The position numbers were made by a program, and so were the translations under genes. From Candidatus Kaiserbacteria bacterium (GTDB lineage: Bacteria; Patescibacteriota; Minisyncoccia; Phycocordibacterales; SBAW01), in assembly GCA_009691465.1 (NCBI GenBank), contig SICK01000002.1, positions 9,951 to 73,950 on the forward strand: a stretch of 64,000 nucleotides of DNA, given 5' to 3'. This document shows, one piece after another, positions 4,400-43,562 of this stretch. Every line of letters starts with the position of its first letter. The stretch's first letter is position 1. The notes below the pieces were generated by a model. The model did not search any database. It saw only the letters and a program-made list of their open reading frames with translations, and was not told the origin of the DNA.

Positions 4400-5011
4400 C
4401 TATAACGAGCTCTTATTGCTAATAGTTTCAAACACTTTTTTGAACTCCTTTTTGGCCCGATGGACCCTCGTCTTGACCGCACCCACAGAGAGCCCCTCTG
4501 CTTCGGCTATTTCCTCCTGCGTCTTCCCTTCTATAAAAAATAATGAGAGCGCGCGAGACATGGGCGCGGGCATCCGCGAGAGCACCGAAGCCACCAGGTC
4601 AATTACTTCTTTCTTTTCGAACTGCCGCAGATTGCGGTCGGGTATAAGCGCCCATATCTCCTCATCCAAACCCACTTCCCCACCACTGCGGCGCTTACGG
4701 CGCGCATAGTGCGTGAGCGCTGTGTTGATGAGGATACGGTAGCCCCACGATGAAAACTGCGCCCCTTCTACCGTCTTAAACTTGCCCGCGTTGAGGTAGA
4801 TCTTGGTAAAGGCCTCCTGCACCACGTCCTCGGCCGCCTCCTGCTCGCGCACGATACTCAATGCCTTGCGCAGGAACGGCTCTTCATACTTGCGCACAAG
4901 CAGGGCAAAGAGCGACGGGGTGTGTACCGACGCGAGCAGGACTTCTTCATCCCGCATCCCCTCCCCCTTCTCTTCCAGTGAGAGATACTCCATGGCCACA
5001 GGATATATCAT
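4400..5011 (-). CDS. RNA polymerase sigma-70 family (ECF-type) sigma factor
   Basis: Region 2 (AEDVVQEAFTKIY) and region 4 HTH (KTQEEIAEAEGLSVGAVKTRVHRAKKEF); about 200 aa. Confidence 0.8.
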   Translation of the reverse strand: MIYPVAMEYLSLEEKGEGMRDEEVLLASVHTPSLFALLVRKYEEPFLRKALSIVREQEAAEDVVQEAFTKIYLNAGKFKTVEGAQFSSWGYRILINTALTHYARRKRRSGGEVGLDEEIWALIPDRNLRQFEKKEVIDLVASVLSRMPAPMSRALSLFFIEGKTQEEIAEAEGLSVGAVKTRVHRAKKEFKKVFETISNKSSL

Positions 5012-12005: not shown

Positions 12006-13928
12006 CTACTGTTTCGGCGCGACAATGTCCATACCCGCGACAAAGTCCGGCTCGGTAAGCCGCGTGGTGGGTGCGAGCGCTGTGGCCGACACGGCCGTCT
12101 GGGCAAAGCGGTCCGTACCCGAGAGCACCGCCGCGCCGGTCAATGCGGGCACCGTGCCCACTTGTGAGACGCTTGGGCTCAAGATGACCTGGAAGCTGCC
12201 CGTCTGCGCGGCCGAGCTGTAGCCCACCCCCGGCTTGATGTCCCCCACATTCCAGCGCACGGTGCGGCTGGCGGCCTCGTAGGTGATGTCAGACCCGGGC
12301 GCGGGCGCCACAAAGCTTACGTACGAAGGCAGTACCGCCGAGACGGTGGCGTTGCCGATAGTGTTGGACGAATTTTTAATCGTCCATACGACCGCGTAGG
12401 CCGTGGGAGACTCTGCGCGCGGCGGCAGGACCCCCGCGTTGGTAAAGGGCCCCGTGTTGTGGAGCGCCTGTGCGGTGAGCAAAGCGGCTGACGAGATAAC
12501 CAGCTGTGTATGTGCGCCCGAGGTGACCGCCTCGGGGACGCTCCCCTCGCCGGTGCGGGTGCCTTTGACCGCGAGCGTCAGGTCAATGGTCGGGTTTTGA
12601 TACACCACGCCGCCGGCCCCGGGAGCAAGGGTCGAGAACGAGAACGAGAGCGTCCCGCTGCCGCCCGGCGGCACTTGTGCAAGCGATGGATCCTGGGCGC
12701 TGGTCCACACCAGGCTCTGCGTGCTCGAGTCATAAAAGCCGCCGCTCGACTTGATAGAGGCAAGGTCGACCATGGGGCCCTCAAATTTGAGCCGCAGTTC
12801 TACATTGCTTACCGGGTCGCGCAGGTTGTTTTGCCAAAGGATATTGCCCTGCAACAATGTGCCCGCCGAGGCGGAGAGTTTTTCTCCCGACTTGCCGTCG
12901 ATAGCAATCGAGCCGGTGATAAACGGCCGGTGCACGGTAAGGCTCGCGGGCACCGAGAGGAAGGGTACGTCTATCTTGCCGGCGGTCTGGTCCTTGGTCG
13001 AGCCGGTAATAAACCGGAAGACCTTCTCATCGCCGTCCTGGCCGTCGACCCGACCCGTAACCCGCAGGACCTGGGTGACGCCCGGACTCATGGTCCCCAC
13101 CCGCCAGAGCGTCCCGCCGGAGTCGGCGTGCGGGGTGGTGCTGTCGACAGAAAAGCCGAACGGATACTGCCCCTGCACCACCACGTCTTGGACGGGTGAT
13201 TGCGAGTTGCTTTGCACGGTCACCGTCATCGAAAACGGCTGTCCGGCGATTATCTCGGCCGGTGCGTCCACCGACACCGACACCGGGGAGGAGCCGAGCG
13301 TCACCGCCACCGCACTCTCTTTGGTAAAGACGGCGTTGCTTGCCTCGACGCTGTACTCGAGCGATGCTTTTATAGTCTGGACCGAGCCCTCCGCGCCGTA
13401 AAAGACGGCCGAGCTGGTCAACTTTTGTTGTCGGCCGGAATCGAGCGTTCCGATAGAAACCCGCTCTTGGTTGAGCGCCTTCTGCGGGTTTTTAGGGTCG
13501 CGCGTGCCTTGCGGGTAGGTGATGATAAGGTCGGCCAGCTGCAGCTGCGCGGGGTTGTGGTTGGTAATGATGAACTGCAGCTGGGCCGCGGTGCCGCCGT
13601 CGATGAGCGCGGGCGCCACAATCTGCAGGTCGATGTTGTCGGAAGAAATGTAGTTGCCGCCGGTAAAAAAGAATACGGAGGCACCAATAGTCGCGAGTAC
13701 AAAAAAAACCGCCGACCCGATGAAGAACTTGGTCGCCAGCGCCATGCGCTCTTGCGGGGCCGAAAAGGCCGGCCGGACCGTGGTCGGCAGCGGCGTGTCC
13801 TCCCAGCGGGCCGGCGCATGCGCATCGGAGGGGTCGAGCGGCGCGCGTATATCGTGCGGCATATGCTCCTGCCCGCGCGAGTAGAGCTTATTTTTAAGCT
13901 CCTCCACCCCACTCTTATCCTCTTGCAT
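12006..13928 (-). CDS. large membrane-anchored surface protein with repeated beta-sandwich (DUF11/CARDB-like) domains
   Basis: Single N-terminal TM after an approximately 70-aa cytoplasmic segment; about 550-aa Thr/Ser/Val-rich extracellular repeats. Confidence 0.55.
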   Translation of the reverse strand: MQEDKSGVEELKNKLYSRGQEHMPHDIRAPLDPSDAHAPARWEDTPLPTTVRPAFSAPQERMALATKFFIGSAVFFVLATIGASVFFFTGGNYISSDNIDLQIVAPALIDGGTAAQLQFIITNHNPAQLQLADLIITYPQGTRDPKNPQKALNQERVSIGTLDSGRQQKLTSSAVFYGAEGSVQTIKASLEYSVEASNAVFTKESAVAVTLGSSPVSVSVDAPAEIIAGQPFSMTVTVQSNSQSPVQDVVVQGQYPFGFSVDSTTPHADSGGTLWRVGTMSPGVTQVLRVTGRVDGQDGDEKVFRFITGSTKDQTAGKIDVPFLSVPASLTVHRPFITGSIAIDGKSGEKLSASAGTLLQGNILWQNNLRDPVSNVELRLKFEGPMVDLASIKSSGGFYDSSTQSLVWTSAQDPSLAQVPPGGSGTLSFSFSTLAPGAGGVVYQNPTIDLTLAVKGTRTGEGSVPEAVTSGAHTQLVISSAALLTAQALHNTGPFTNAGVLPPRAESPTAYAVVWTIKNSSNTIGNATVSAVLPSYVSFVAPAPGSDITYEAASRTVRWNVGDIKPGVGYSSAAQTGSFQVILSPSVSQVGTVPALTGAAVLSGTDRFAQTAVSATALAPTTRLTEPDFVAGMDIVAPKQ

Positions 13929-32733: not shown

Positions 32734-33438
32734 TTATAACTGCTCGCCTACTATACTAAGCATTTTTTGTATTTTCAACCGCTTACGCGGCAAGTGCATA
32801 CTGTTCTTTCTGTAGTACATTCTTCGCAACAAAATAAGCGATTCTTTTTTTGCGTACTTGAGCTGATATATCGTGCGCGCTTTCCCCTTCCCAGTAACAT
32901 GGCCTTCTATACCTGCCTGTCTGCGGATCTCATCGCGCAACCAGACAATATGAACTTTGCTGGCTGACCCAAAAACCGTGTAAAACATATAACTAGAGCG
33001 CCAGCGCGGATCCCAATAGGAATAGGTGCATCCGTCCCCATCAAGATGCCCGCGCAAAAAGTCAAAAAAGTATGTATCCGGAATCTTTAGGCTTCCAATG
33101 ACCTTGCTTTTATTTGGCATGAGCCCAATCTCTAAAAGAAAGTTGTAGAGGGTGACATTGCCGAATTGAATTCTTGGGCACAGATTTCCGTCATAGCCAG
33201 AACGGGTATAACCTATGGCGGATTTTAAATTAAAAGCTTTTTTAGCATTCTCCAGCTGCACTATATCTTTTGAGACCAGCGTGATATGCCGACCATCACC
33301 GGAAAGGCAGCCATCGGTGACTAAAAGGCCAATCCCATACGCAAGCTCCGCTGACCACACAGGCGGAGGTTTTGGTTTTGGTCCCCTCTTCCCCATCTTA
33401 ATTAGTATACCAAACCTCAAGTATATAGCGTCTACCAA
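32734..33438 (-). CDS. LAGLIDADG homing endonuclease (two-motif)
   Basis: LAYGIGLLVTDGC and FLRGHLDGDG motifs; AT-rich; stop codon 5 nt from tRNA-Leu 5' end; true start may be MGKRGPK (33396). Confidence 0.75.
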   Translation of the reverse strand: MVDAIYLRFGILIKMGKRGPKPKPPPVWSAELAYGIGLLVTDGCLSGDGRHITLVSKDIVQLENAKKAFNLKSAIGYTRSGYDGNLCPRIQFGNVTLYNFLLEIGLMPNKSKVIGSLKIPDTYFFDFLRGHLDGDGCTYSYWDPRWRSSYMFYTVFGSASKVHIVWLRDEIRRQAGIEGHVTGKGKARTIYQLKYAKKESLILLRRMYYRKNSMHLPRKRLKIQKMLSIVGEQL

Positions 33439-33993: not shown

Positions 33994-34683
33994 CTACGCT
34001 TTTCGCAATTCTGCCTCGGCCGCGACGAAGTCCGGCGGCAGGGGGGCCAGAAAGGTCATCTCACGCCCGGAGGGGTGCGCAATAGTAATAGAGTACGCGT
34101 GGAGCGCGAGGCGCTTGAATCCGAACATAGGAGGCCGTTGGGGTGCGTAAAGTTGGTCGCACACAATCGGGTGCTGTATCGCGGCGCAGTGCACGCGGAT
34201 CTGGTGGGTGCGCCCGGTCTTGGGGAACGCTTCTATATATGCGGCACCCTGCCCGCTTGCACTCTGCTCGGTCGAAGTATTGCTCAAGCGCTTCCAGGTG
34301 GTCGAGGCCGCGCGCTGTACTCCGTGGGGGCGCGTGGCCGAGCGGGGCCCGCGCCCGCCGCGCGCAGAGCCGATGGGCCGCTCTATCACTCCCCTTTCTT
34401 CTTTGAGCGCGCCGTACACGAACGCGCGGTATATCTTTTTTATTTCCCGGTTCTGGAATTGCTCTTTTAAAAACGCGTGCGCCTCTGCTGTTTTGGCCAC
34501 TACCAACACACCCGAGGTCTCGCGGTCGATGCGGTGTACAAAATGATGTTCCTGATATTTTTTATCCAACCAATGCGAAAGGGCCGGGTAGTCGTGCTTG
34601 CCGTCCGGGTAGACGATCATCCCGGAGGGTTTGTTGACGACCACCAGCATATCGTCTTCAAATAAAATGGTGGGCTCTTCCAT
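33994..34683 (-). CDS. RluA-family pseudouridine synthase
   Basis: Catalytic HRIDRETSGVLV motif. Confidence 0.8.
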   Translation of the reverse strand: MEEPTILFEDDMLVVVNKPSGMIVYPDGKHDYPALSHWLDKKYQEHHFVHRIDRETSGVLVVAKTAEAHAFLKEQFQNREIKKIYRAFVYGALKEERGVIERPIGSARGGRGPRSATRPHGVQRAASTTWKRLSNTSTEQSASGQGAAYIEAFPKTGRTHQIRVHCAAIQHPIVCDQLYAPQRPPMFGFKRLALHAYSITIAHPSGREMTFLAPLPPDFVAAEAELRKA

Positions 34684-34684
34684 G

Positions 34685-34757
34685 TGGGCGCTGCAGGACT
34701 CGAACCTGCGACCATCCCGGTGTAAACGGGGTGCTCTACCAACTGAGCTAAGCGCCC
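34685..34757 (-). tRNA. tRNA-Val (anticodon TAC)
   Basis: Hand-parsed cloverleaf; anticodon loop TTTACAC. Confidence 0.85.
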
Positions 34758-34758
34758 G

Positions 34759-34830
34759 TGCCCTCGGTAGGAATCGAACCTACATTCGCGGCTTAGAAGT
34801 CCGCTGTTCTATCCATTGAACTACAAGGGC
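34759..34830 (-). tRNA. tRNA-Arg (anticodon TCT)
   Basis: Hand-parsed cloverleaf; anticodon loop CTTCTAA; 1 nt from tRNA-Val. Confidence 0.8.
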
Positions 34831-34841
34831 GAATGCCCTAT

Positions 34842-35456
34842 TCAAAACCAGGGCAGCAGGTGCCAGTGCACCATAGCATATATGATACCAAGTATCACCA
34901 GCGCCACGCCGAACCACGCCAGGTATTGCTTGATGATATCGAGCGCGTGCCGTCCGTAGCGGATAGACAGGTAGACCACCAACCCCATGCGCAAGGCCCG
35001 GCCGAGCGTGTACCCGGCGATAAACGGCACAAACGGCGCGCCCAAAAACCCGCCCGCATAAATAAACACCTTGTCGGGGATCGGGGTAAACGACGCGATT
35101 GCCATGCCGACAAACGCCCCGTTTTGGATGAATACTTGTGCTCGTGCAAAAGCATCCTGCAGTCCGTACAGCGCCAACAGCGGCTCTCCAAATTGTTGAA
35201 AAAGAAATCCACCGACATAGTAGCCGACCGCCGCCCCTAGGACCGAAAACACTATCGCCACCGGCAGGTACTGGCGCCAGCGTGCGGGCTGGGCCAGGGC
35301 AAAAGCGACCAAGTATATCTCGGGTGCTAGGGGGAAGAAGAGTGCATCGGCAAACGCCAGGCCGCCCAGCCACGCGAGCGCGTGCGGCTTGTGCGTGTGC
35401 TCGACAAACCACGCCCACGACCGCATATGCCACTCGTGTATCAAGTGCCAGCTCAT
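34842..35456 (-). CDS. DedA/YqaA-family membrane protein
   Basis: Multi-TM with conserved G-rich motif (FTPIPDKVFIYAGG); start trimmed to MSWHLIHEW. Confidence 0.6.
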   Translation of the reverse strand: MSWHLIHEWHMRSWAWFVEHTHKPHALAWLGGLAFADALFFPLAPEIYLVAFALAQPARWRQYLPVAIVFSVLGAAVGYYVGGFLFQQFGEPLLALYGLQDAFARAQVFIQNGAFVGMAIASFTPIPDKVFIYAGGFLGAPFVPFIAGYTLGRALRMGLVVYLSIRYGRHALDIIKQYLAWFGVALVILGIIYAMVHWHLLPWF

Positions 35457-35457
35457 A

Positions 35458-35784
35458 TTATTTGACGCGCTCGCCGGGAGCGCCCGTGGTTTCAAACAAA
35501 GCAAAAGGAGTATCCCCGCCGCCCACGGCAAGCAGCATCGCCTGGCTCTCGAGCCCCATCATGGTGCGGGGTGCAAGATTGGTGACAAAGGGGTAGCGCT
35601 TCCCCACCAATGCTTGCGGGTCAGGAAAATATTTTGCGATGCCGGAGAGCACTTGGCGCTCCTCGGTTCCAAAATTAACACGCAGCTTAAGCAGCTTGTC
35701 GCTGCCCTCTATCGGTTCGGCTGACAACACTTCACCGATCTGTATCTCGACTTTTTTAAAATCATCTAACGATATTGGTTCCAT
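35458..35784 (-). CDS. tRNA-binding (EMAP/Myf-like, CsaA-type) domain protein
   Basis: Pattern FKKVEIQIGEVLSAEPIEGSDKLLKLRVNFG...GIAKYF typical of tRNA-binding OB domain. Confidence 0.65.
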   Translation of the reverse strand: MEPISLDDFKKVEIQIGEVLSAEPIEGSDKLLKLRVNFGTEERQVLSGIAKYFPDPQALVGKRYPFVTNLAPRTMMGLESQAMLLAVGGGDTPFALFETTGAPGERVK

Positions 35785-35785
35785 A

Positions 35786-36199
35786 TTATTTTTTTATAGT
35801 ATCAAGAAAACTTTGTAATATCAGCGCCGCCGCCGATGCGTCGAGGTCGGTGTGGATGGGATTCTGTTTGCGGGAGCCCTCAGTGGGGGTAAACTGCCGC
35901 GCGGCAGCCGCACTGCTAAACAGCTCGTTTTGGTAGTGCACCGGCAGTTGTGTCAGTTCGGCTATGTCTTTTTTAAACTGCTCTATGTCCTCCATCACGG
36001 GGTTGCGCTCTCCGGCAAAGTTGCGCGACTCGCCCAACACTATCTCCCCTACCCCCTGCGCTTTTACTATATCGACGACCTCCTGCAAGGCGTGCGGTCC
36101 GGCTTTGACGACCCCGTGCGGAAACGCGACCGAGCCCGTCTCGTCCGAAACGGCAACGCCGATATGTTTTGTCCCGTAATCTATCCCCAAGTACCGCAT
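35786..36199 (-). CDS. ruvX: Holliday-junction resolvase-like / pre-16S rRNA nuclease YqgF (RuvX)
   Basis: MRYLGIDYGTKHIGVAVSD N-terminus; start trimmed from the long 249-aa ORF. Confidence 0.8.
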   Translation of the reverse strand: MRYLGIDYGTKHIGVAVSDETGSVAFPHGVVKAGPHALQEVVDIVKAQGVGEIVLGESRNFAGERNPVMEDIEQFKKDIAELTQLPVHYQNELFSSAAAARQFTPTEGSRKQNPIHTDLDASAAALILQSFLDTIKK

Positions 36200-36221
36200 T
36201 GGTGTAGCATAACAAATATAC

Positions 36222-36306
36222 GGAGGGGTGGCAGAGTGGTCTAACGCACCGCACTTGAAATGCGGCGTGCCGCAAGGCACCGTGAGTTCGAATCTCACCC
36301 CCTCCG
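36222..36306 (+). tRNA. tRNA-Ser (anticodon TGA), long variable arm
   Basis: Hand-parsed: acceptor GGAGGGG/CCCCTCC, anticodon loop CTTGAAA, variable arm CGTGCCGCAAGGCACC. Confidence 0.85.
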
Positions 36307-36331
36307 CAGATTGTAGCGGTATAATACCTCC

Positions 36332-36796
36332 ATGGCAGAAGACTCCGGCATTTCGTGGAGCGTGGACACACACGAGCATCATGACCACAGCACCGACTGG
36401 TACTGGGGGCTGGGGCTCATCGCCCTTGCAGGCGCGGGGCTTGCGCTGTTTTTCGGCAACGCGCTCTTTGCGGTTATCATCGCCATGAGCGCCGGCTCTA
36501 TCGGTGTCTTGGCTATACGCGGCCCCCGCGAGCACACCGTGCGCTTAAGCGAGCGCGGCGTATCACTCGACGGCACGGTCTACCGGTGGGACGGGATAGA
36601 CTCTTTTTGGATAGAGGACGGCGGAGAGCCGCGCCTACTGATCTCGACCAAGGGCCTGCTCCATCCGCAGCTGGTTATCCCTCTGGGAGACAAAACGCGC
36701 GCCATGAGCGTACGCAACTACCTGCGCCGCCATGCAGCAGAGGAAGAACAGCATGCCCACTTGGGCGAGCATCTCGCGGAGATGTTCGGACTTTAA
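36332..36796 (+). CDS. hypothetical membrane protein
   Basis: His/Asp-rich N-terminus, two TM helices, soluble C-terminal domain. Confidence 0.5.
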   Translation: MAEDSGISWSVDTHEHHDHSTDWYWGLGLIALAGAGLALFFGNALFAVIIAMSAGSIGVLAIRGPREHTVRLSERGVSLDGTVYRWDGIDSFWIEDGGEPRLLISTKGLLHPQLVIPLGDKTRAMSVRNYLRRHAAEEEQHAHLGEHLAEMFGL

Positions 36797-36829
36797 ATAA
36801 ACAGCAAAGCAGTTTGCTTTTTCAACCTA

Positions 36830-36923
36830 GTGCAGGATACTTGAATTAGTGCGAACCAGCTTCCGTGCCGCCGAAGGCGGCGCAAACCCCCCGCAGAAAA
36901 TGCAGGCGGCGAAGCCGCACCGC
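36830..36923. repeat. IR-L: left copy of a 94-bp PERFECT inverted repeat
   Basis: gtgcaggatacttgaattagtgcgaaccagcttccgtgccgccgaaggcggcgcaaaccccccgcagaaaatgcaggcggcgaagccgcaccgc; its exact reverse complement is at 37878-37971; contains GAA-loop hairpins. Confidence 0.9.
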
Positions 36924-36992
36924 TGACAATATCAAATTTTTCTTTGGCGGACTAGGTTAGAGCGCGCAAAGCGCGCACAACTGCTCTTTGAT

Positions 36993-37769
36993 TTATTGGG
37001 TTATCGTCAATGTCCCCGATGCTGGAGACGCATATGGTACTGCGGCAACTACATGATATGTACCGGACGTAAGGCCATTCGGAAAAATATCTGTATGCAA
37101 CAGGGACGATTTAGAGATTTTGACGGACCAACGACCATTCACAACAGACACATGCTCATCGTTGAAGAGAACAGTTGGTTTTGGCGGAGCATAATCAATG
37201 CTGATCAAAATCTCTCTAACGCCTGAAGCTGTACCGGTAATGGTGGGTTCAGCGGAAGAACTGGTGAGTGAACCAGCATCAATGCTTATGGATGGCTGGG
37301 CAACTATTGTAAGCGTCCCTGAAGCGAGAACTTTGGTTCCACTAGCGTCTGATACGCTCACTCCGTAAGTCCCAGCAGAAAGTGCAGAAAAGCCAGGGAA
37401 GTCGGCGTAATCAACGGGATATGACCAACGGCCATTTACCACTTTTACCAAAGTACTGGGATGGCGATTATCTGGGTTAATGGCAATTATCTTTCCCGTC
37501 TGATCAGTCATCGTCAGAGCTACACTAACTTGACCTGTATTCGCGGCCGTCCCAGTAATTATGGGCTGTACGGTTGAAGAATTGAGAGAAGCCGAGTCAA
37601 TTGTTGCGGATGGCGCACTAGATGGCTGTGTCGCTTGTTGCTGAATTTCTGTGGTTGAAGAAGTCGCAGGCACACTTGGTTTCTGCGACATAGCCCACCA
37701 CGCGACTGCCCCGCCAATAATGACGACAAGTCCAACTATGAGCCACACATTTGCAAATCCTCGATTCAT
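36993..37769 (-). CDS. secreted tandem beta-sandwich (Ig-like) repeat protein, enclosed by the 94-bp IRs
   Basis: N-terminal TM/signal; two internally repeated approximately 90-aa Thr/Ser-rich modules; lower GC. Confidence 0.55.
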   Translation of the reverse strand: MNRGFANVWLIVGLVVIIGGAVAWWAMSQKPSVPATSSTTEIQQQATQPSSAPSATIDSASLNSSTVQPIITGTAANTGQVSVALTMTDQTGKIIAINPDNRHPSTLVKVVNGRWSYPVDYADFPGFSALSAGTYGVSVSDASGTKVLASGTLTIVAQPSISIDAGSLTSSSAEPTITGTASGVREILISIDYAPPKPTVLFNDEHVSVVNGRWSVKISKSSLLHTDIFPNGLTSGTYHVVAAVPYASPASGTLTITQ

Positions 37770-37877
37770 AAAATTAGTAATGAGTTAATAAATAAATTGT
37801 ATGCCTAAAATTTTCTTTTTCCCGAATTCAAATATGGTTCGTGCCGATGTTTTTCCGGGCTCCTTGGCGGTTTTCGA

Positions 37878-37971
37878 GCGGTGCGGCTTCGCCGCCTGCA
37901 TTTTCTGCGGGGGGTTTGCGCCGCCTTCGGCGGCACGGAAGCTGGTTCGCACTAATTCAAGTATCCTGCAC
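37878..37971. repeat. IR-R: right copy of the 94-bp perfect inverted repeat
   Basis: Exact reverse complement of 36830-36923 (verified base by base); identity stops at both ends. Confidence 0.9.
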
Positions 37972-38050
37972 CAAGTAGGAAATTGCAAGGAAGAGCTCGC
38001 CGCCGCGCACTGCGTTTTGGGGCTGAATTCAAATTGGCGATTTCGCATTC
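37972..38050 (-). pseudogene. diverged inverted copy of the serine-recombinase 3' end plus tRNA-Arg acceptor end (attachment-site-like remnant)
   Basis: Reverse complement aligns with 39470-39570 (gcgaaatcgccaatttgaattc..., gcggcggcgagctc..ccttgcaatttcctayttggtgc) with a 19-nt gap; encodes RNRQFEFSPKTQCAAASSSLQFPTWC vs recombinase C-terminus RNRQFEFEAKPQYARAAAPCAAASSTLQFPIWC; diverges exactly after ttggtgc. Confidence 0.6.
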
Positions 38051-38100
38051 GGGAAAAAGAAAACTTTTTGGCATTCCATTAAAAATAACTACTACGAAAT

Positions 38101-39579
38101 ATGAAATATGTACTTTACGCTAGAAAGTCCACCGAGGAAGATGACCGACAAGTCCTAAGTATTCAAGCTCAGCTTGCTGAGCTTTCTTCGTATTCCGCCA
38201 AAGAAAAATTTGATATTGTCGCCTCGTTTTACGAGGCGAAAACCGCAAAAGAGCCCGGGCGAACTGTGTTCGCAGAAATGCTGTCATTCATCGAAGCTGG
38301 GAAAGCAGACGGAATCATATCTTGGCACCCCGATAGATTGGCAAGAAATTCAGTTGATGGTGGCAAGATAATCCACATGGTAGATCGCGGCTTGATTCGT
38401 TCCCTCAAATTTCCGACCCACTGGTTTGAACCAACGCCGCAAGGACTATTCATGCTGAACATTGCTTTCGGACAAAGTAAGTACTTCTCCGACAATTTGC
38501 GAGAGAATGTGAAGCGCGGACTACGACAAAAGATACGGAACGGCGTATGGCCCGGCTGGGCTCCGGTGGGATATCTGAACAATCCTAAGACAAGAGGAAT
38601 CGACGTGGACAATACCAACGCTCCCAAAGTGAAAAAACTATTCGAACTGTATTCCACCGGAGCCTACACGCTAAAATCTCTCGCAAATTGGTGCACGGAA
38701 CAACACCTCAAAACGAACGCTGGCAATTCAATATCACTAAGCAATGTTCAGCATATTCTCTCAAATCCGTTCTACACCGGACTGATGAGATACAAGTCGG
38801 AAATCTTTGAGGGAACCCACGAGCCGGTTCTGACAAAGAAACTTTTTGACCAAGTACAGGAAGTGATGTCGAAACGCGGCAAGGTACACGAAACCAAGAG
38901 GCACAGCTTCGCGTTTCTCGGCCTAATGAAGTGCGCCTCGTGCGGTGCAAGCATCACCGCGCAATATGCGAAAGGAAATGGTGGCATCTACACCTACTAT
39001 CGCTACACAAAAAAACGAGGCGTGTGTACCGAGAAATATCTGCGTGAAGATGTGCTTGAAACACAAATCAAATCGTTCCTACAAAAAGTTTCTTTATCGA
39101 GCCAAGACACGCAGAAAGTTTTGGCGGCGTTGGAACAGGACGAAGCGCAGGAGAAAGAGGAAGCAAGGGCAGAAGCAGAAAACCTAAAAGCGGAACTCGC
39201 AACGCTGGACAACCAATTAGAAAAGTTGCTCAACCTCTATCTTGCTGACGCGCTATCCACAGCAGAATACGCCGCTAAAAAGAATACCCTCATATCTCAA
39301 AAAGTGCGAATCGAGGAGAAAATCACCGACATCGAACAAAGGGGCGTGTCTTGGCTCGAACCGGCTCGTGAATTCGTTTTATCCTTGAATCAAGCCGCGA
39401 ATCTGCTTTCCCACAATGACTTGAGCGGAATGACAGCATTTCTGAAAAACATCGGCGCGAACCATTCTCTGCGAAATCGCCAATTTGAATTCGAGGCCAA
39501 ACCGCAGTACGCGCGAGCCGCCGCGCCCTGCGCGGCGGCGAGCTCCACCTTGCAATTTCCTATTTGGTGCTCCCGGTAG
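38101..39579 (+). CDS. large serine recombinase (resolvase/invertase-type catalytic domain + recombinase domain + zinc ribbon + coiled coil)
   Basis: YARKSTEEDDRQ catalytic-Ser motif, CASCGA zinc ribbon, Glu/Lys-rich coiled coil; AT-rich relative to genome; last 15 nt overlap tRNA-Arg 3' end. Confidence 0.85.
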   Translation: MKYVLYARKSTEEDDRQVLSIQAQLAELSSYSAKEKFDIVASFYEAKTAKEPGRTVFAEMLSFIEAGKADGIISWHPDRLARNSVDGGKIIHMVDRGLIRSLKFPTHWFEPTPQGLFMLNIAFGQSKYFSDNLRENVKRGLRQKIRNGVWPGWAPVGYLNNPKTRGIDVDNTNAPKVKKLFELYSTGAYTLKSLANWCTEQHLKTNAGNSISLSNVQHILSNPFYTGLMRYKSEIFEGTHEPVLTKKLFDQVQEVMSKRGKVHETKRHSFAFLGLMKCASCGASITAQYAKGNGGIYTYYRYTKKRGVCTEKYLREDVLETQIKSFLQKVSLSSQDTQKVLAALEQDEAQEKEEARAEAENLKAELATLDNQLEKLLNLYLADALSTAEYAAKKNTLISQKVRIEEKITDIEQRGVSWLEPAREFVLSLNQAANLLSHNDLSGMTAFLKNIGANHSLRNRQFEFEAKPQYARAAAPCAAASSTLQFPIWCSR

Positions 39580-39639
39580 GAATCGAACCTACATCATATC
39601 CTCCGCAAGGATACGTCCTATCCATTGAACGACGGGAGC
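39565..39639 (-). tRNA. tRNA-Arg (anticodon GCG) with encoded CCA
   Basis: Hand-parsed: GCTCCCG acceptor, anticodon loop TTGCGGA, T-loop TTCGATT, 3' ACCA encoded; convergently overlapped by recombinase stop. Confidence 0.8.
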
Positions 39640-39682
39640 CTTAAACCCTGAAAGCTTACAGGGTTTAGCTTGTTTGGGCAAA

Positions 39683-42600
39683 CTAGATTTCGAGGAAACT
39701 CGGCAGAATGCTCACCGATTTTTGTAGAGGGCTCCCGCTGTCGCAGGTCAGAGTAAAGGTGGTGCGTTTGCTGATGGTCTGCGACAGGGTGCCGTTGAGT
39801 GAGCTGGAGAGTACTCCTGCAGCGGTCGAAGAGAGCGTACAGGCGGTGCCGCTTACCCCGCCGCTCCATACCACGGTGATGGTGCCGCGGCGGCGTACCC
39901 GGCTGGGGGTGACCGACAGCGAGAGTTCGGCAGAGGGTGCGTTGATGCAGGCAGAGCCACCGGTGGGGCAGGTCTGGCCCGCAGAGCAGTTGGTCAGGGT
40001 GGCGCCCGAGCAGGAGTCCACCGTCTTGGTGTTGTCGCCCGAGCAGGTGGCATTGTGCAGACAACCGGCCGTCAGTTTGACCCCACAGGCGCTGCTGCTG
40101 TATGAGAGCGAGGTGACCCCGTGCTGGGTAGAAGCGGCGTAGCTCGAGCTCAATCCCATGCTCGTGCGCGTGATATCCATGGTCTGCCCGATTGACACCA
40201 GACCCGCATGTACGGCGGCCTTGCCCACCGCAGAGTCCCAAGTGTAGCTGCCGTTGGCGGTGCCGTTGCCTCCCCAGATGCTTCCAGATGCAGTACCAAT
40301 CACCGTGATGGGTGTGTAGGCAGAGGGGTGGTCGGTAGCGCAGGTGTCGGCGGCGTCGTTGTCGGTGATGGTAAGCGTTGCCGCCGCGTTGCCGGAAATG
40401 GTGTACCCGTTAGGTGAGTTGAGCGTCAGGACGGCAGTCTCGTTCCCCTCGGCTGTCGTGTCGTCGACCGGTGTGAGCGTTACGATGATCGTGCTCTGCC
40501 CGGGCATAAAGGTAACGCGTGCGCTGGACGGATAGTCGATATAGCCGCCGGCGAGCGTGTAGTCGGTGTTGTTCGTCGCACTGCCGGTGATATCAATATA
40601 CACACCAAGAGGAGAGCTATTGGAACCGCCGCGTGTGACGGTATAGGTGCCGGTGGTCGAGGGTTCTCCAGGGCTGCCCGCGGCAGAGATAGAGATGGTG
40701 TTAGCAGGCGGAGGCGTCCCACCGCCGCTGACGTTTACATTGGCGTTGCAGCTGCTGGAGCCCGAGCTGTTGGTGAGCGTGATAGTAAAGGGTACGGCAA
40801 CGGTACTGCCGGTGCTGTTGGTGATGTTGCCGGAGGAGTAGCTGGTGAGGGTTGCGGGGGTTACTGTTTGGGAGTCGACGCAGTTAACTCCGCTGACTTG
40901 GTTCTGATGGCAGACCAGCGTGGCGCCGGTGGCGGCACCACCCACGTTACTCCAACTAAAGGTGGTATTGTTGCCGCTGCTAATCGAGGTAGGGCTCGGG
41001 GAGAGGCTGGAGTTGCCGCTGACCATGCAGTTGGGGGCGGACGAATTGTTTTGATTATTTTGGGTGCAGGTATTACTGCCCGAGTTGTAGGTGTATCCGC
41101 TCTGTGCATTACAGCTGGGGTAGGTACCGGGGCAATTGGCGGGGCACACCGCCGCTCCTTGTGTAGTAAACGCGCCGGTTGCCTGGTTGCTGTAGGTCCA
41201 CGTACCTAATGCGTTGGTGTTGGCCGCATGCACCCACCAGGTATAGGCGGTGCCGGGGTTGAGGTTACTAAAGGTCATGCTGGTCCCCGTGGTGTTGTCG
41301 TTGATGCAGGTGGCGTTGTCGCTGTAGAGCACCCAGTTTGCACCGATGGCCGGGCAGCCGGCGGTGGGCTTGGGGGTGAGGCGTATGGGGTAGAGGTTGG
41401 TGTTGTAGGCGACAGAGCTCCACGTGCCCGAGCAGGTGGTGGAGTTGCTGCACGAACTTGCGGTGATGTTGGGTGGGGGGAGCGGGGTAAAGTTGTGTGA
41501 TGAAGGAGAGCTCCATCCGCCCGCGTTGTACGCATGCACCCACCAGGTGTAGGCGGTACCCGTGCTCAAATTGTTGAAGGTCATGTTGGTGCCGGAGTTG
41601 GTATCGTGGACGCAGGTGGCGTTGTCGCTGAAGGTCGACCACCCCGAGCCGATAGCTGAACAGCCGCCGGACGGTTTGGGAGTAAGGCGCACGGGGTAGA
41701 GTGTTGCTCCGCTCACCGAGCCCCACACCCCGGTGCAGGTGCCGCCGATGCAGTAGCTGGCGGTGACGTTTGGAGCAGCAGGAATGGGGACTGAAATGGT
41801 CACCGGGATAGACATAGTTGCAGAGCCTACCGGGCCACTGCAAGTAAGGCTGTAGGTAGTGTTGCTGGTGGGGTACACGGTGGTGGAGTTAAGGAGCCCC
41901 GAGCCGCCAAAGTTGGAGCTGGCGGAGTCAAACTGATTTTTAGTCCCGCCGTAGTTGTCGTAGCCGCCACAGGGGCCAAAAGGCGTCCAGTACCAGGAAC
42001 AATACACCGCCCTGAATTCTTCGTAATCCTGGCAGGCCCACTCAAGTACTAGCGCCCCGCCGCTTGCCACAGTGGGGTTAGAGCCGGTAGAGCCGGGCGA
42101 ATAGGAGTGGCTTTCCGCCGCTTGACGGGCGCTGTAGCAGTTAGCTCCCGACCCGAGGGCGACGTATGTATACCCCTCGGCTGGTGCGTAGGTGTTGGGG
42201 CAGTAGTAGCCTCCGCCCTCGCCGCCGTCATACTCGGCCGGACCAACATAGGGCCCTAGTTCTTCGCCCGCGGGGTTGATGGTCTGTAGCGTATAGGCCG
42301 TTTTCCCCGCCGTAGAGCCGGCAGGATGGGCGCTAAAGACGGCCATGATGGCAGCACTATTATTGCCAGTGGCCCAGTTGTTACAGCCGGGCGCGCTAGT
42401 AAACGGTGTTTGATCAAGTTCCCCCTTACCCCAAGGGCCTGTTTTGCAGCCTTGCGGCCGCGGAGAGCCGTTAGAGCCGCTCCCCACTTGATTCCACGGC
42501 GAATTGACATTATAGCCGGGGACGCCCTGTTGGGTGCCCAGCCAGGTAGCGGCCGTTTGTGATTGGTCGATAACACTCAAAGACCCGAGGCTCTTTTCCA

Positions 42601-42700
42601 GCCCGCCTTGGCTGATAAAGATTGCTGCAAAGAGGAGGAGCGCCACGCCGCCGCATCGTGCGGCCAAAAAGCGCAGCTCTTCAGGAGTAAGCGGTCGCAT
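39683..42700 (-). CDS. giant membrane-anchored Cys/Gly/Ser/Thr/Asn-rich surface protein (Fn3-like repeats, Calx-beta-like and LCCL-like domains)
   Basis: N-terminal anchor (LLLFAAIFI); two approximately 100-aa repeats each ending TAYTWWVHA; Calx-beta-like segment (...TLTITDND); LCCL-like segment (...AAVHAGL...); start trimmed to MRPLTPEEL because upstream codon is TTG. Confidence 0.7.
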   Translation of the reverse strand: MRPLTPEELRFLAARCGGVALLLFAAIFISQGGLEKSLGSLSVIDQSQTAATWLGTQQGVPGYNVNSPWNQVGSGSNGSPRPQGCKTGPWGKGELDQTPFTSAPGCNNWATGNNSAAIMAVFSAHPAGSTAGKTAYTLQTINPAGEELGPYVGPAEYDGGEGGGYYCPNTYAPAEGYTYVALGSGANCYSARQAAESHSYSPGSTGSNPTVASGGALVLEWACQDYEEFRAVYCSWYWTPFGPCGGYDNYGGTKNQFDSASSNFGGSGLLNSTTVYPTSNTTYSLTCSGPVGSATMSIPVTISVPIPAAPNVTASYCIGGTCTGVWGSVSGATLYPVRLTPKPSGGCSAIGSGWSTFSDNATCVHDTNSGTNMTFNNLSTGTAYTWWVHAYNAGGWSSPSSHNFTPLPPPNITASSCSNSTTCSGTWSSVAYNTNLYPIRLTPKPTAGCPAIGANWVLYSDNATCINDNTTGTSMTFSNLNPGTAYTWWVHAANTNALGTWTYSNQATGAFTTQGAAVCPANCPGTYPSCNAQSGYTYNSGSNTCTQNNQNNSSAPNCMVSGNSSLSPSPTSISSGNNTTFSWSNVGGAATGATLVCHQNQVSGVNCVDSQTVTPATLTSYSSGNITNSTGSTVAVPFTITLTNSSGSSSCNANVNVSGGGTPPPANTISISAAGSPGEPSTTGTYTVTRGGSNSSPLGVYIDITGSATNNTDYTLAGGYIDYPSSARVTFMPGQSTIIVTLTPVDDTTAEGNETAVLTLNSPNGYTISGNAAATLTITDNDAADTCATDHPSAYTPITVIGTASGSIWGGNGTANGSYTWDSAVGKAAVHAGLVSIGQTMDITRTSMGLSSSYAASTQHGVTSLSYSSSACGVKLTAGCLHNATCSGDNTKTVDSCSGATLTNCSAGQTCPTGGSACINAPSAELSLSVTPSRVRRRGTITVVWSGGVSGTACTLSSTAAGVLSSSLNGTLSQTISKRTTFTLTCDSGSPLQKSVSILPSFLEI

Positions 42701-42751
42701 GCGTCCATTGTACCTCCCAATACAGAAGGCAAAGTCAATTCTCCACAACTA

Positions 42752-42866: not shown

Positions 42867-43562
42867 ATGGCTGGCGTGCGCTACCCCGAAAAGACGAAGC
42901 AAAAAGCGCTGGAGCTGGTACAGTTAGGTAAAACTTACGCCCAAATTCAAACAAATCTCGCAATCCCTAAAAGCACCCTCTCTGTATGGGTCAACCAACT
43001 TGGAAAGAGGCCCGACCGAACCCGGCAGCTAGCTCACCTACGTGTCGCAAGAATAGCCTCTGCAGCAGCCCTCCGGCGTAGCAAAGACTCTCGTATCGCC
43101 CAAGCCACCCTTGTTGCTACTCAACTTGCCGGCGTAACTCCAATCGACAGAAAGGAAGTCGGGAAAGCCTTACTCGCAATGCTATATTGGGCGGAGGGCG
43201 GCAAACAAGATGGAAATATGAAGTTCACAAATACGGACCCGAACCTGGTGGTATTTTTTATTACTTTGCTGCGCAAACAGTACGCCGTGGACGAGAAACG
43301 TCTCCATGTCGCTTTACAATTACACTCCTACCACCGATCGAAAGATGAGCTTAATTTTTGGTCAAAAATACTACATATACCCGTATCACAGTTTTGGAAA
43401 ATCTATAGAAAACCGCGCGGTGGGCGTAGAACATACCGGAGGAATTCCCATGGAATTTGTAACTTGCACTATGCCTCAAGTTCTATCCAGCGCGAACTCA
43501 TAGCTCTCGGTCGCGAGCTCGCATTAAAAATCAGACCCGAAAATGCAGCCGCACTAAATTAG
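42867..43562 (+). CDS. LAGLIDADG-family homing endonuclease with N-terminal HTH
   Basis: LAMLYWAEGGK motif (LAGLIDADG_3-like single motif), N-terminal HTH (TYAQIQTNLAIPKSTLSVW); AT-rich; stop 18 nt before tRNA-Arg(CCG). Confidence 0.65.
   Translation: MAGVRYPEKTKQKALELVQLGKTYAQIQTNLAIPKSTLSVWVNQLGKRPDRTRQLAHLRVARIASAAALRRSKDSRIAQATLVATQLAGVTPIDRKEVGKALLAMLYWAEGGKQDGNMKFTNTDPNLVVFFITLLRKQYAVDEKRLHVALQLHSYHRSKDELNFWSKILHIPVSQFWKIYRKPRGGRRTYRRNSHGICNLHYASSSIQRELIALGRELALKIRPENAAALN

Follow-up and report, generated by a model that had tools for sequence, protein, structure and literature searches.

In the window, i.e. the whole stretch of 64,000 nucleotides from a Candidatus Kaiserbacteria contig analysed here, a large serine recombinase (LSR) gene running into a tRNA gene is preceded by two long inverted repeats that enclose another gene, which raises the question of what these repeats are and which DNA, if any, the recombinase turns around. 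A preliminary description of the locus offered two readings, an invertible surface-antigen cassette and nested attachment-site scars of a tRNA-targeting element. The explanation considered probable here is that the locus is an integrated two-module tRNA element, that inversion of the recombinase module by its own integrase would act as a switch, and that the copy in the window is locked.

Architecture of the element in the window

The arms of the repeat, 36830-36923 (+ strand) and 37878-37971 (- strand), are exact reverse complements over 94 nt (100%), as first described, and inverted complementarity amounts to 96% over 106 nt (36819-36924 with 37877-37982). An inverted match of 94 nt is far beyond chance. 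A collapsed or chimeric repeat, a concern raised at the outset, would be in keeping with the many related contigs that end at or within such arms and indicate that these repeats are hard to assemble. However, two Logan k=31 contigs derived from the reads of run SRR8561390 match the window at 100% identity: L162 equals 36895-37906, covering the entire inner segment with 29-30 nt of either arm, and L001 equals 37942-40228, which takes in the outermost 30 nt of the right arm, the recombinase gene and the tRNA. Because all four arm junctions are reproduced in read-derived contigs, the repeat is not an assembler artefact. Moreover, the same design recurs in dozens of assemblies produced by different groups with different assemblers, including elements with non-identical arms, and the probability of an artefact is practically negligible.

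The integrated element occupies 36830-39570 (2.74 kb) and has tRNA-Arg(GCG) as its integration target (39565-39639, - strand; 63 bits). G+C content is 46-49% over roughly 36900-39560 and 57-66% in the flanks, a composition different from that of the host that bears out the low G+C first remarked for the recombinase gene. Only two genes, cargo and recombinase, are present within the element, and no other copy of it was found in the 64-kb window. In the nomenclature used here, Q and P are the attachment-site arms, O is the core, and S1, S2 and S3 are the left end, internal junction and right end. The Q arm is the attP arm that follows the 3' end of the recombinase gene when the element is circular, and the P arm corresponds to the final ~100 nt of that gene. 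From left to right, the element is arranged as host.O.Q - cargo - rc(Q).O.rc(P) - promoter region - recombinase - P.O.tRNA.

To the left of S1, the host flank carries a hairpin (36802-36825) that is the terminator of the upstream gene. The attL-like S1 (host flank.GTGC.Q arm) has its 4-nt shared core GTGC at 36830-36833 (+ strand), and the left Q arm (IR-A left arm, 36830-36923) starts there; the IR-A right arm (37878-37971) is the second, inverted copy of Q. S2, the junction rc(Q).core.rc(P), has its core at 37968-37971 on the - strand, read as GCAC on the + strand, and leads into the IR-B left arm (37968-38047, - strand), in which the 3' end of the recombinase gene is repeated in inverted form. 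The corresponding P arm at the recombinase 3' end (IR-B right arm, 39470-39570, + strand) provides the tRNA with its discriminator base and CCA, and the core of S3 (P.GTGC.tRNA), the right end, lies at 39567-39570. That the 3' part of the recombinase gene recurs as a diverged, inverted copy which stops at the tRNA terminus had been noted in the preliminary description, and both the copy and its boundary hold, the copy starting at GCACCAA. It has suffered a 21-nt deletion, by which one hairpin strand is gone, and ~8 substitutions.

The recombinase (38101-39579, + strand; 492 aa), initially described as an LSR overlapping tRNA-Arg(GCG), is indeed full length, with all LSR domains present and a full-length match to relatives. 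Pfam matches are to PF00239 (Resolvase; E = 2.6e-21, residues 4-150), PF07508 (Recombinase; E = 4e-17) and PF13408 (Zn_ribbon_recom; E = 2.9e-09); the serine-nucleophile motif YARKST lies at residues 6-11. A charged heptad-like stretch visible in the translation at residues ~335-420 is a candidate for the coiled coil that, in LSRs, is inserted in the zinc-ribbon domain and imposes attP x attB directionality. Its nearest solved relatives are SPbeta SprA and the A118 integrase. The stop codon falls within the tRNA gene, giving the integrated protein the C-terminus ...WCSR*, and reading through the Q arm instead would continue as ...WCRILELVRT.... Because the tail beyond the core varies from 2 to 96 residues among relatives, a functional role for it is doubtful. 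Inside the ORF, a 'core' hairpin, TCGCCTCGT TTT ACGAGGCGA (38219-38239, + strand; fold z = -2.5), lies between segment a (38191-38220) and segment b (38237-38258); among 149 related genes, 95 have a perfect stem of at least 7 bp, with codon-level compensatory variants. A prophage integrase is not supported, as this is a two-gene element without adjoining phage genes, and no relatives were found in IMG/VR with close-relative patterns.

Between the arms, the expected 258-aa ORF is present (36993-37769, - strand), and an identical gene is found on the Logan contig. The protein had been described as secreted and Ig-like. It has a hydrophobic N-terminus and no Pfam family match, and the Ig-like label is weakly supported, by remote homologues with Big_13 or TIG Ig-like domains. 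The upstream region of the cargo gene (37765-37832, - strand) is 75% identical, in inverted orientation, to that of the recombinase gene (38042-38105). The two genes are divergently arranged with related 5' regions, here and in relatives, and no sigma-70 consensus promoter was found for either of them.

Short inverted copies of recombinase segments, absent like the upstream match from the preliminary description, sit just inside the 94-bp arms, all on the - strand. The 30-nt adaptor a' (36925-36954), a 97% copy of recombinase nt 91-120 (38191-38220), abuts the distal arm, and its position and orientation are constant in 55/55 related loci. At the other side lie 3f' (37834-37855), an inverted copy of 39444-39465, and b' (37855-37876), an inverted copy of 38237-38258, which abuts the proximal arm here and in relatives. 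In the cargo module, the Q palindrome between a' and b' occupies a position equivalent to that of the core hairpin between a and b.

Attachment sites and integration at tRNA genes

When the left half of S3 is fused to the right half of S1, the product is identical to the reverse complement of S2; this holds in 13 elements. The internal junction S2 is thus a complete attP in inverted orientation, the 94-bp repeat being, by the same comparison, the Q arm in two copies and the diverged copy the P arm in two copies. S1, S2 and S3 have in common only a core of 3-6 nt (GTGC in the window), and the family-wide intersection of the shared blocks is two bases equivalent to tRNA positions 71-72. Crossover is therefore placed, by inference, at acceptor-stem positions 71-72 of tRNA-Arg(GCG), and the family target would be the last two acceptor-stem base pairs of tRNA genes, the 3' end of which (discriminator base and CCA) is rebuilt by the P arm. 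L098 has an empty site that agrees with the flanks of the sister element L002. Q and P, at the two outer ends, do not form an inverted repeat with each other; each repeat pairs an outer end with the internal site. An IS or MITE with terminal inverted repeats was ruled out, the ends being unlike and sharing only the 4-nt core.

About a hundred related loci with the same architecture were found in public CPR assemblies. In 89 loci, a tRNA gene of the opposite strand directly adjoins the 3' end of the recombinase gene, 27 tRNA species being involved; the recombinase gene is bracketed by repeats in 87 of 108 complete loci, and a repeat-bracketed single-gene cargo of varied function occurs in 55 loci. 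The arms are 90-100% identical within an element and only ~80% identical between elements whose recombinases are 80-92% identical, and arms of 90-100% identity in the same architecture are found even in elements whose recombinases are 40-55% identical to that of the window. No description of this element family was found in the literature searched; it is large, belongs mainly to CPR/Patescibacteria and is apparently undescribed. Tandem arrays show that the unit of integration is the entire two-module element. Four arrays (L119, L123, L145 and L033) contain hybrid junctions P'.O.Q, so an element arm can occupy one half of the target site. In L033, the tRNA-distal element looks younger, which suggests that integration can target the left end as well.

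These data bear on the second of the initial readings. Attachment sites of a tRNA-targeting element are supported by the shared core GTGC and, for the sister element, by the empty site; 'scars' is the wrong word for them, because the inverted internal attP and near-identical arms are kept in relatives down to ~40% protein identity. That the internal site and repeats are functionless leftovers of nested or successive tRNA integrations is distinctly unlikely. Nested and tandem insertions are known in the family; a', b', 3f' and the promoter copy resemble remnants of recombinase genes; and the internal P arm of the window is decayed, from a lineage unlike that of the recombinase's own 3' end. Yet the architecture, near-identical arms included, is preserved across such divergent recombinases, the hairpins of both arms are maintained by compensatory stem variants, and flipped recombinase modules (see below) indicate that the sites, or at least the repeats, are in use.

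The hairpins also raise the possibility that the repeats work chiefly in single-stranded nucleic acids, either as outward terminators insulating the modules or by folding single-stranded DNA, whereby the internal site would pair with the joined ends. Single-stranded folding has parallels in the folded attP of phage CTX and in the internal complementary region of DIRS retroelements. At its inner end, the left Q arm forms a terminator-like hairpin with a T-run on the - strand (36923 to 36906), matched in the right arm by a terminator-like hairpin on the + strand (37878-37895), so that both outward-facing strands carry one; the P arm also scores as terminator-like. The GC-rich hairpins of both arms retain their structure with many different stems, and S2 is exactly complementary to the joined element ends. 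However, ~30 nt suffice for a terminator, whereas near-identity extends here over ~100 nt and takes in the part to which the recombinase binds. Serine recombinases act on duplex sites, in which they cleave both strands, and a folded single-stranded circle, once recombined, would leave hairpin-capped chromosome ends. No evidence was found for a single-stranded stage, and a main role of this kind is very unlikely.

Orientation of the two modules

The first of the initial readings, a phase-variable cassette in which the LSR would invert the 954 bp enclosed by the 94-bp repeats and thereby vary expression of a secreted protein, draws on the perfect repeat with an adjoining recombinase gene, on the hydrophobic N-terminus and Ig-like remote homologues of the cargo, and on the fact that identical arms prevent a short-read graph from fixing the orientation of the inner segment. 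Among relatives, however, the cargo has the standard orientation in 55/55 scorable loci (0/55 flipped), more than 15 of which have arms diverged by 3-8% and are therefore unambiguously assembled. If the cargo flipped at ~7%, the rate of the recombinase module, the chance of 0/55 would be ~0.02, an approximate value as some loci are redundant. The upstream region of the cargo gene and the outward-facing terminator-like hairpins lie inside or at the repeats and would travel with the cargo, so a flip would not switch it on or off. The relatives' cargo genes are also unrelated to one another, encoding a dehydrogenase, signal peptidase, methyltransferase, nucleotidyltransferase and others, mostly enzymes rather than surface proteins. 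The surface-antigen reading is thus not supported and highly improbable; from these comparisons, the cargo module is a swappable single-gene cassette of fixed orientation.

The recombinase module, on the other hand, is the only one of the two found in both orientations. L086 and L089 share one element (100% identity over 1605 nt), its tRNA-Val location and the adjoining flank (98.8%), but have the recombinase module in opposite orientations, each arm moving with its own polymorphisms. In this pair, the one that is informative on the point, the crossover can be placed only within the outer ~34 nt of the 101-nt arm, and RecA-dependent recombination therefore stays compatible with it. L074 and L058 are likewise the same element at tRNA-Thr in opposite orientations. 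In L106 and L139, the order recombinase-P.O.Q-b'-3f'-promoter-cargo-a'-rc(Q) corresponds to the flipped relative orientation. Several decayed derivatives add to this; L081 and L096 arose by deletion, and L081 can be derived only from the flipped state. The flipped contigs all stop near the other arm. The recombinase-linked inversion foreseen in the preliminary description is accordingly found for the recombinase module in relatives, but not for the segment between the 94-bp repeats. In run SRR8561390, a flipped recombinase module was not detectable at contig level, L001 being unbranched through the S2 and S3 cores.

These arrangements could also arise if the element were a ~2.7-kb circle resembling the yeast 2-micron plasmid, with the cargo and recombinase regions set apart by two inverted ~200-bp copies of attP, isomerising and integrating through either attP, so that 'flipped' loci would be alternative integration products. 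Opening such a circle at one attP gives exactly the map of the integrated element, L106 and L139, with both contig ends inside arms, could be circles of the other isomer, and full two-module units integrate in tandem arrays. Against this, neither a circular contig nor an attP junction continuous with the standard cargo orientation was found. Random use of the two attP copies predicts that about half of the insertions have both modules reversed, whereas 89 loci are standard, 7 have the tRNA upstream, and the cargo is never reversed relative to the host flank. L081, moreover, stems from a state in which the recombinase alone was flipped. A circle of this type is therefore unlikely.

In the preferred explanation, inversion takes place within the integrated element. 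The right end, P.O.tRNA, would still present a tRNA half-site. It and the internal attP would thus be inverted partners of an attP x attB-like kind, which the integrase alone could invert, with both site types regenerated in the product. No tRNA half-site is available at the left end, and this would account for the fixed cargo. Recombinase and tRNA genes point towards each other in the common orientation, and in the flipped one the recombinase gene would lie downstream of the tRNA in the same direction; inversion may then be a self-limiting on/off switch for the recombinase, its role in expression being inferred from this arrangement. Canonical LSRs such as phiC31 and Bxb1 are not known to recombine attP with attR, so the proposed attP x attB-like inversion is an assumption. 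Crossover at the core alone does not account for the near-identity of the arms over ~100 nt. In the window, the recombinase module has probably become fixed in the common orientation, because the internal P arm has lost one hairpin strand; this arm being degenerate, the copy may be inactive.

Relation to known systems and significance

The element is closest in its enzyme to known LSR elements (A118, SPbeta SprA, phiC31, Bxb1; TnpX, TndX), with which it shares the catalytic resolvase, recombinase and zinc-ribbon domains with an inserted helical region, a core common to attL, attR and attP, an integrase gene beside attP, and a compositionally distinct insertion. Unlike these, it enters many different tRNA genes at their 3' end, crossing over within the acceptor stem. 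It is just 2.7 kb long, has one cargo gene, lacks a candidate directionality factor and retains a complete inverted attP when integrated. Studied serine integrases use about 25 bp per half-site, whereas the arms here are conserved over ~100 nt with hairpins.

As in Hin/hix, Gin/gix, Cin and Pin, a serine recombinase is encoded within or beside DNA that inverted sites delimit; the invertible segment of Hin contains the gene for the recombinase, and both orientations occur in nature, as here. Those invertases are ~190 aa long, act on 26-bp sites with a Fis-bound enhancer, and switch a promoter or tail-fibre or flagellin genes, whereas here an LSR is present, the sites are att-site arms bordering a mobile element, and the visible effect is the orientation of the recombinase relative to the tRNA gene. 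A Hin/Gin-type switch was ruled out by a 492-aa protein with LSR domains rather than ~190 aa with a C-terminal helix-turn-helix. Switching of genes at the borders is at odds with a self-contained cargo of invariant orientation (55/55), and the occurrence of both orientations that marks a phase-variable inverton is seen in relatives for the recombinase module, not for the 94-bp-repeat segment (0/55).

The 2-micron plasmid (FLP, 599-bp inverted repeats) is similar in that repeats with a central recombination site split a small element, that one of the two unique regions encodes the recombinase, and that two isomers exist. It differs in its tyrosine recombinase, autonomous replication and equimolar isomers, the element here being integrated with one isomer predominant. 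Integron cassettes likewise place single, promoter-proximal, diverse genes in a standard frame beside a site-specific recombinase; here there is no tyrosine IntI, attI or attC, and each element has one cassette with its own upstream region. An integron was ruled out, the sole recombinase being a serine recombinase. In myxophage Mx8 intP and similar genes, the recombinase ORF also crosses the crossover point and integration alters the C-terminus, but Mx8 IntP is a tyrosine integrase without an internal inverted attP.

A further, tentative possibility is that a self-inverting integrase module gated against a strong tRNA promoter, together with an exchangeable one-gene slot, constitutes an integron-like platform in CPR bacteria. 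In that reading, which is doubtful, an inverted attP beside an attB-competent attR would allow inversion without a directionality factor.

The family would add to known integrative elements a compact design in which an integrase gene that flips and a slot for one gene are combined with an inverted attP inside the element and with insertion at the acceptor-stem end of many tRNAs. As serine integrases are major tools for genome engineering, an arm tolerated in half of the target and inversion that may proceed without a directionality factor would be of practical interest. For CPR biology, such elements would be a common source of small accessory genes, account for recurrent assembly breaks beside tRNA genes, and might drive rearrangements between tRNA loci.

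Anatomy of the element at tRNA-Arg(gcg)

The two 94-nt segments of the preliminary description (36830-36923 and 37878-37971) are exact reverse complements, as stated there, and match at 96% over 106 nt. They enclose a 258-aa ORF on the minus strand (36993-37769), and to the right of the repeats lies a 492-aa ORF on the plus strand (38101-39579) with Resolvase, Recombinase and Zn_ribbon_recom domains. Its product is a member of the large serine recombinases (LSRs), with SPbeta SprA and the A118 integrase as closest solved structures. The overlap reported between this gene and tRNA-Arg(gcg) (39565-39639, minus strand) was borne out and consists of the last codons of the ORF, and the reported diverged inverted copy of the recombinase 3' end (39470-39570) was found at 37968-38047, beginning GCACCAA. 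G+C is 46-49% over about 36900-39560, compared with 57-66% outside.

At the left end of the element (S1), host DNA ending in AACCTA is followed by the shared core GTGC and AGGATACTTG; at the right end (S3), CCTATTTG is followed by GTGC, TCCCGG and then the tRNA; and at the internal junction (S2), read as its reverse complement, CCTACTTG is followed by GTGC and AGGATACTTG. S2 therefore consists of the left half of S3 and the right half of S1, and is the attachment site (attP) expected from excision, kept inside the element and inverted. Its P arm is the recombinase 3' end and its Q arm the other arm of the site: the 94-bp repeat consists of the Q arms of S1 and S2, and the "diverged copy" is P at S2, the partner of P at S3. 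The circular junction of the element is predicted to read CCTATTTGGTGCAGGATACTTG, where the internal site instead reads CCTACTTGGTGC, and the empty site of this locus is predicted to read TTTTTCAACCTAGTGCTCCCGGTAGG. Just inside the Q arms, the module holding the 258-aa gene (the cargo) carries short adaptors that are inverted copies of recombinase segments, namely a' (36925-36954, from 38191-38220), b' (37855-37876, from 38237-38258) and 3f' (37834-37855, from 39444-39465); the sequence upstream of the cargo (37765-37832) likewise copies, inverted, that upstream of the recombinase (38042-38105). That the 94-bp arm might be a structured RNA or tRNA-like gene was considered and dropped, since an Rfam search of 34000-42000 (E <= 10) gave no match in the repeats, with only tRNAs above threshold.

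An assembly artefact, named earlier as a possible source of the repeats, is ruled out by k=31 contigs built in Logan from the reads of run SRR8561390, which match the window at 100% (L162 over 36895-37906 and L001 over 37942-40228). Both end about 30 nt inside an arm, as a true inverted repeat predicts for a de Bruijn graph. L001 crosses both cores unbranched, so the flipped form is not detectable in this run. The recombinase, for which truncation had been envisaged, is full length and 92% identical to that of a sister element, L002. The internal P arm has about 8 substitutions and has lost 21 nt, and with them one strand of the arm hairpin; 89% identity is retained in the proximal 47 nt. In L086 (a metagenomic locus) and L003 the arms are intact. 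The internal P arm of the present element resembles the L086 lineage, and the 3' end of the recombinase itself matches L002; with P arms of two lineages, the window element looks recombinant.

Other features were observed nearby. The window (34684-34830) and related genomes (L002:858-4009, L098:2941-3096, L003:7465-11524) differ in how the genes for tRNA-Leu(gag), Val(tac), Arg(tct), Ser(tga) and Arg(gcg) are ordered and oriented; tRNA-Val and tRNA-Arg(tct) have no spacer in the window and are convergent with a 9-nt gap in L098. A resident attP could, as a side effect, give rise to rearrangements between tRNA 3' ends. Two ORFs of low GC, each about 230 aa long, are neighbours of tRNA-Leu(gag) (32734-33438, minus strand, no family) and tRNA-Arg(ccg) (42867-43562, plus strand, weak HTH_23 match); these, too, may be small genes of mobile or homing type associated with tRNAs. 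Immediately past the tRNA, a 1021-aa repeat protein with internal DNA repeats and fn3, LCCL and Calx-beta matches (39683-42748, minus strand) is host-encoded, with high GC, and outside the element. Among the related loci, a 298-nt perfect inverted repeat lies near an element or tRNA gene (L143:1425-1722 and 4510-4807), and a 186-nt perfect one surrounds about 1.48 kb beside tRNA-Leu(gag) (L003:11629-11814 and 13292-13476) and may be a second element.

Relatives, target site and arrays

Related loci were collected from a one-genome-per-species scan (80 loci) and a metagenome scan (another 80), nearly all in Patescibacteria/CPR assemblies; a scan of IMG/VR gave no close relative. Inverted repeats of 50-400 nt and 85-100% identity bracket the recombinase in 87 of the 108 loci that hold the whole gene and upstream sequence, and in 55 loci a second pair abuts the first and encloses 0.55-1.7 kb. 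Base-by-base comparison of 13 elements, in which the conserved TTGC of the P arm served as reference point for positions, revealed the same logic of three sites as in the window. The identity blocks common to these sites intersect at two bases, tRNA acceptor-stem positions 71-72. Elements of the window's subfamily have GC here and those of the Ser-tRNA subfamily GG, with AG seen once; the tRNA receives its discriminator base and CCA from the P arm. An empty site for L002 is found in L098, where tRNA-Arg(tct) and tRNA-Val stand face to face, 9 nt apart, and the L002 element is positioned exactly between them.

Tandem arrays at L119, L123, L145 and L033 read [rc(P')-recombinase'-P'].O.[Q-cargo-rc(Q)].O.[rc(P)-recombinase-P].O.tRNA, with O the core and rc the reverse complement. 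They show that complete two-module units integrate, and that a site can be a target when one of its sides is an element arm. Each array holds two elements of different subfamilies at a single tRNA; in L033, a 4.7-kb cargo lies between 292-nt perfect repeats, and the tRNA-distal element seems younger than the proximal one. Complete two-module elements also lie, not at a tRNA, but at about codon 120-130 of another relative's recombinase gene (L068:4034-8553, L060:508-5616), from which it appears that one subfamily may target the recombinase genes of competitors.

Each arm has a GC-rich hairpin 25-60 nt from the core, conserved in structure with stems that vary between elements. About 21-27 nt from the core, the Q arm also has a conserved TCGAAC(C), a motif that resembles the T-loop part of the tRNA arm but is placed about 7 nt farther out than it. 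A further hairpin lies within the recombinase ORF between segments a and b (38219-38239 in the window), with a perfect stem of at least 7 bp in 95 of 149 genes, upheld by matched codon changes (for example S-F-Y-E, S-L-C-E, S-F-Q-E, S-F-E-E). In about 95 related loci its stem is a perfect 7-9 bp over codons A-S-F/L-x-E-A, with paired synonymous and non-synonymous changes (such as TCG..CGA, TCC..GGA, TCT..AGA), exactly at the a/b breakpoint of cargo adaptors and decayed derivatives. The recombinase frame is open for at least 47 nt beyond the core in 38/38 elements, and through the whole Q arm in 25. Coding selection on the Q arm was considered and set aside, the open frame being ascribed to a conserved, putative binding-site sequence followed by the GC-rich hairpins; because these explain it, and because the b' frame differs between subfamilies, a functional long isoform is not proposed.

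An inverting recombinase module and a cargo cassette

In the common orientation (89 loci, 27 tRNA species in total), the 3' end of the recombinase gene adjoins an opposite-strand tRNA gene, and in 7 loci a tRNA lies just upstream on the recombinase's own strand. The clearest pair, L086 and L089, comes from two metagenomes and shares 1605 nt at 100% (left arm, upstream region and recombinase), together with tRNA-Val(cac) and host flank at 98.8%; this tRNA follows the recombinase 3' end in L086 and precedes the upstream region in L089. The element arms differ at four or five positions, some of them compensatory in the arm hairpin, and each arm moved with its own module side, which places the exchange in the outer ~34 nt or at the core. 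Opposite orientations of one element are also found at tRNA-Thr(tgt) (L074 and L058), a same-strand tRNA lies just upstream of the recombinase in L098 and L096 (truncated in the latter), and L106 and L139, counted apart from the 7 loci, have a flipped relative module orientation (recombinase-P.O.Q-b'-3f'-upstream'-cargo(+)-a'-rc(Q)). Only recombinase codons 1-54 are left in L081, fused to cargo adaptors, which requires inversion followed by deletion between the then-direct b and b' copies. Recombinases are 5'-truncated in 2/7 tRNA-upstream loci (L036, L157); there, a same-strand tRNA-Ser(gga) and a further 22 nt run directly into the recombinase at about nt 108-115 (L157:15-200, L036:5535-5700), so that the catalytic serine is lost, and downstream of the junction L157 is 99.9% identical to the intact L115. 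The earlier suggestion of recombinase-linked inversion is thus, on these alignments, well supported for the recombinase module in relatives, but not for the cargo segment to which it had been applied.

The 55 loci that could be scored all have a' next to the distal arm, in inverted orientation with respect to the recombinase, and b' next to the proximal arm; a flipped cargo module was found in 0/55, for which the probability would be about 0.02 at the recombinase module's rate (redundant loci included). The arms differ by 3-8% in more than 15 of these loci, so that their assembly is unambiguous. Moreover, the cargo upstream region lies inside the repeats, and the Q arm has a hairpin and then a T-run at its inner end, with a terminator-like score on the cargo-leaving strand on both sides; inversion would therefore have no effect on cargo expression. 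No sigma-70 consensus promoter was found for cargo or recombinase. Cargo genes are mutually unrelated across relatives (a short-chain dehydrogenase, signal peptidase S26, a MazG/deoxyribosyltransferase protein, a methyltransferase, a nucleotidyltransferase and several small secreted or membrane proteins). The window cargo has no Pfam family and remote homologues with Big_13 or TIG domains; exact-protein look-up gave no match for the 258-aa product or the upstream 154-aa ORF, and the cargo matched only when a shorter start was used. The cargo proteins of the window, L003, L012, L018, L020, L108 and L149, several of them different in other respects, have a similar N-terminus, M-N-(Q)-K/R-G-F-A/S-N-I and then a hydrophobic stretch, reminiscent of an export or anchor signal in common. 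Taken on gene content and orientation, the cargo module is a cassette and not a switch, and the phase-variable surface antigen proposed earlier is not upheld.

The cargo module looks like a derivative of the recombinase module opened elsewhere, as its 3f' and upstream copy meet just as they would after loss of a P.O.rc(P) palindrome, and the Q palindrome sits between a' and b', the place equivalent to the recombinase-ORF hairpin. Adaptors on average match the recombinase of their own element better (66.7 identical bases against 38.9); a claim of strict concerted evolution was softened, as only 12-18 of 38 elements have their own recombinase as best match.

A possible mechanism and its place among known systems

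RecA-dependent exchange could account for the flips of the recombinase module, and the L086/L089 crossover interval is compatible with it. However, the two repeat pairs are similar in length and identity, yet a single module flips, which disfavours plain homologous recombination and favours site choice. S2 is a full attP and S3 keeps the tRNA half-site; hybrid sites of this kind can be targets, as the tandem arrays show, and the outer side of S1 is nothing but arbitrary host DNA. An integrase confined to attP x attB-type reactions could therefore invert the S2-S3 segment. Each inversion would restore the two site types with no need for a directionality factor, for which the element has no room. 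Canonical serine integrases are not known to recombine attP with attR. A model of independent units, each module with its own circle and a palindromic attP, was rejected as a general one because the core dinucleotide is non-palindromic (GG or AG) in many relatives, allowing only inversion between inverted sites; it is chemically possible for the GC subfamily, including the window.

The purpose of inversion is hypothetical. The recombinase gene converges on the tRNA gene in the common orientation and lies downstream of it, codirectional, in the flipped one. If read-through from the tRNA promoter raised recombinase expression in flipped modules, the return to the common orientation would be fast and switching on slow, which would yield the observed bias towards a single orientation.

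The element works like tRNA-inserted integrative elements, its flipping module like a Hin-type segment carrying its own recombinase, and its map is similar to that of a 2-micron plasmid linearised at one of its repeats; it lacks the features that define small-invertase switches, integrons, TIR transposons and prophages. Full-text literature searches found no description of the two-module architecture. The architecture itself is certain, and would appear from these comparisons to be an undescribed form of the known LSR/integrative-element type.
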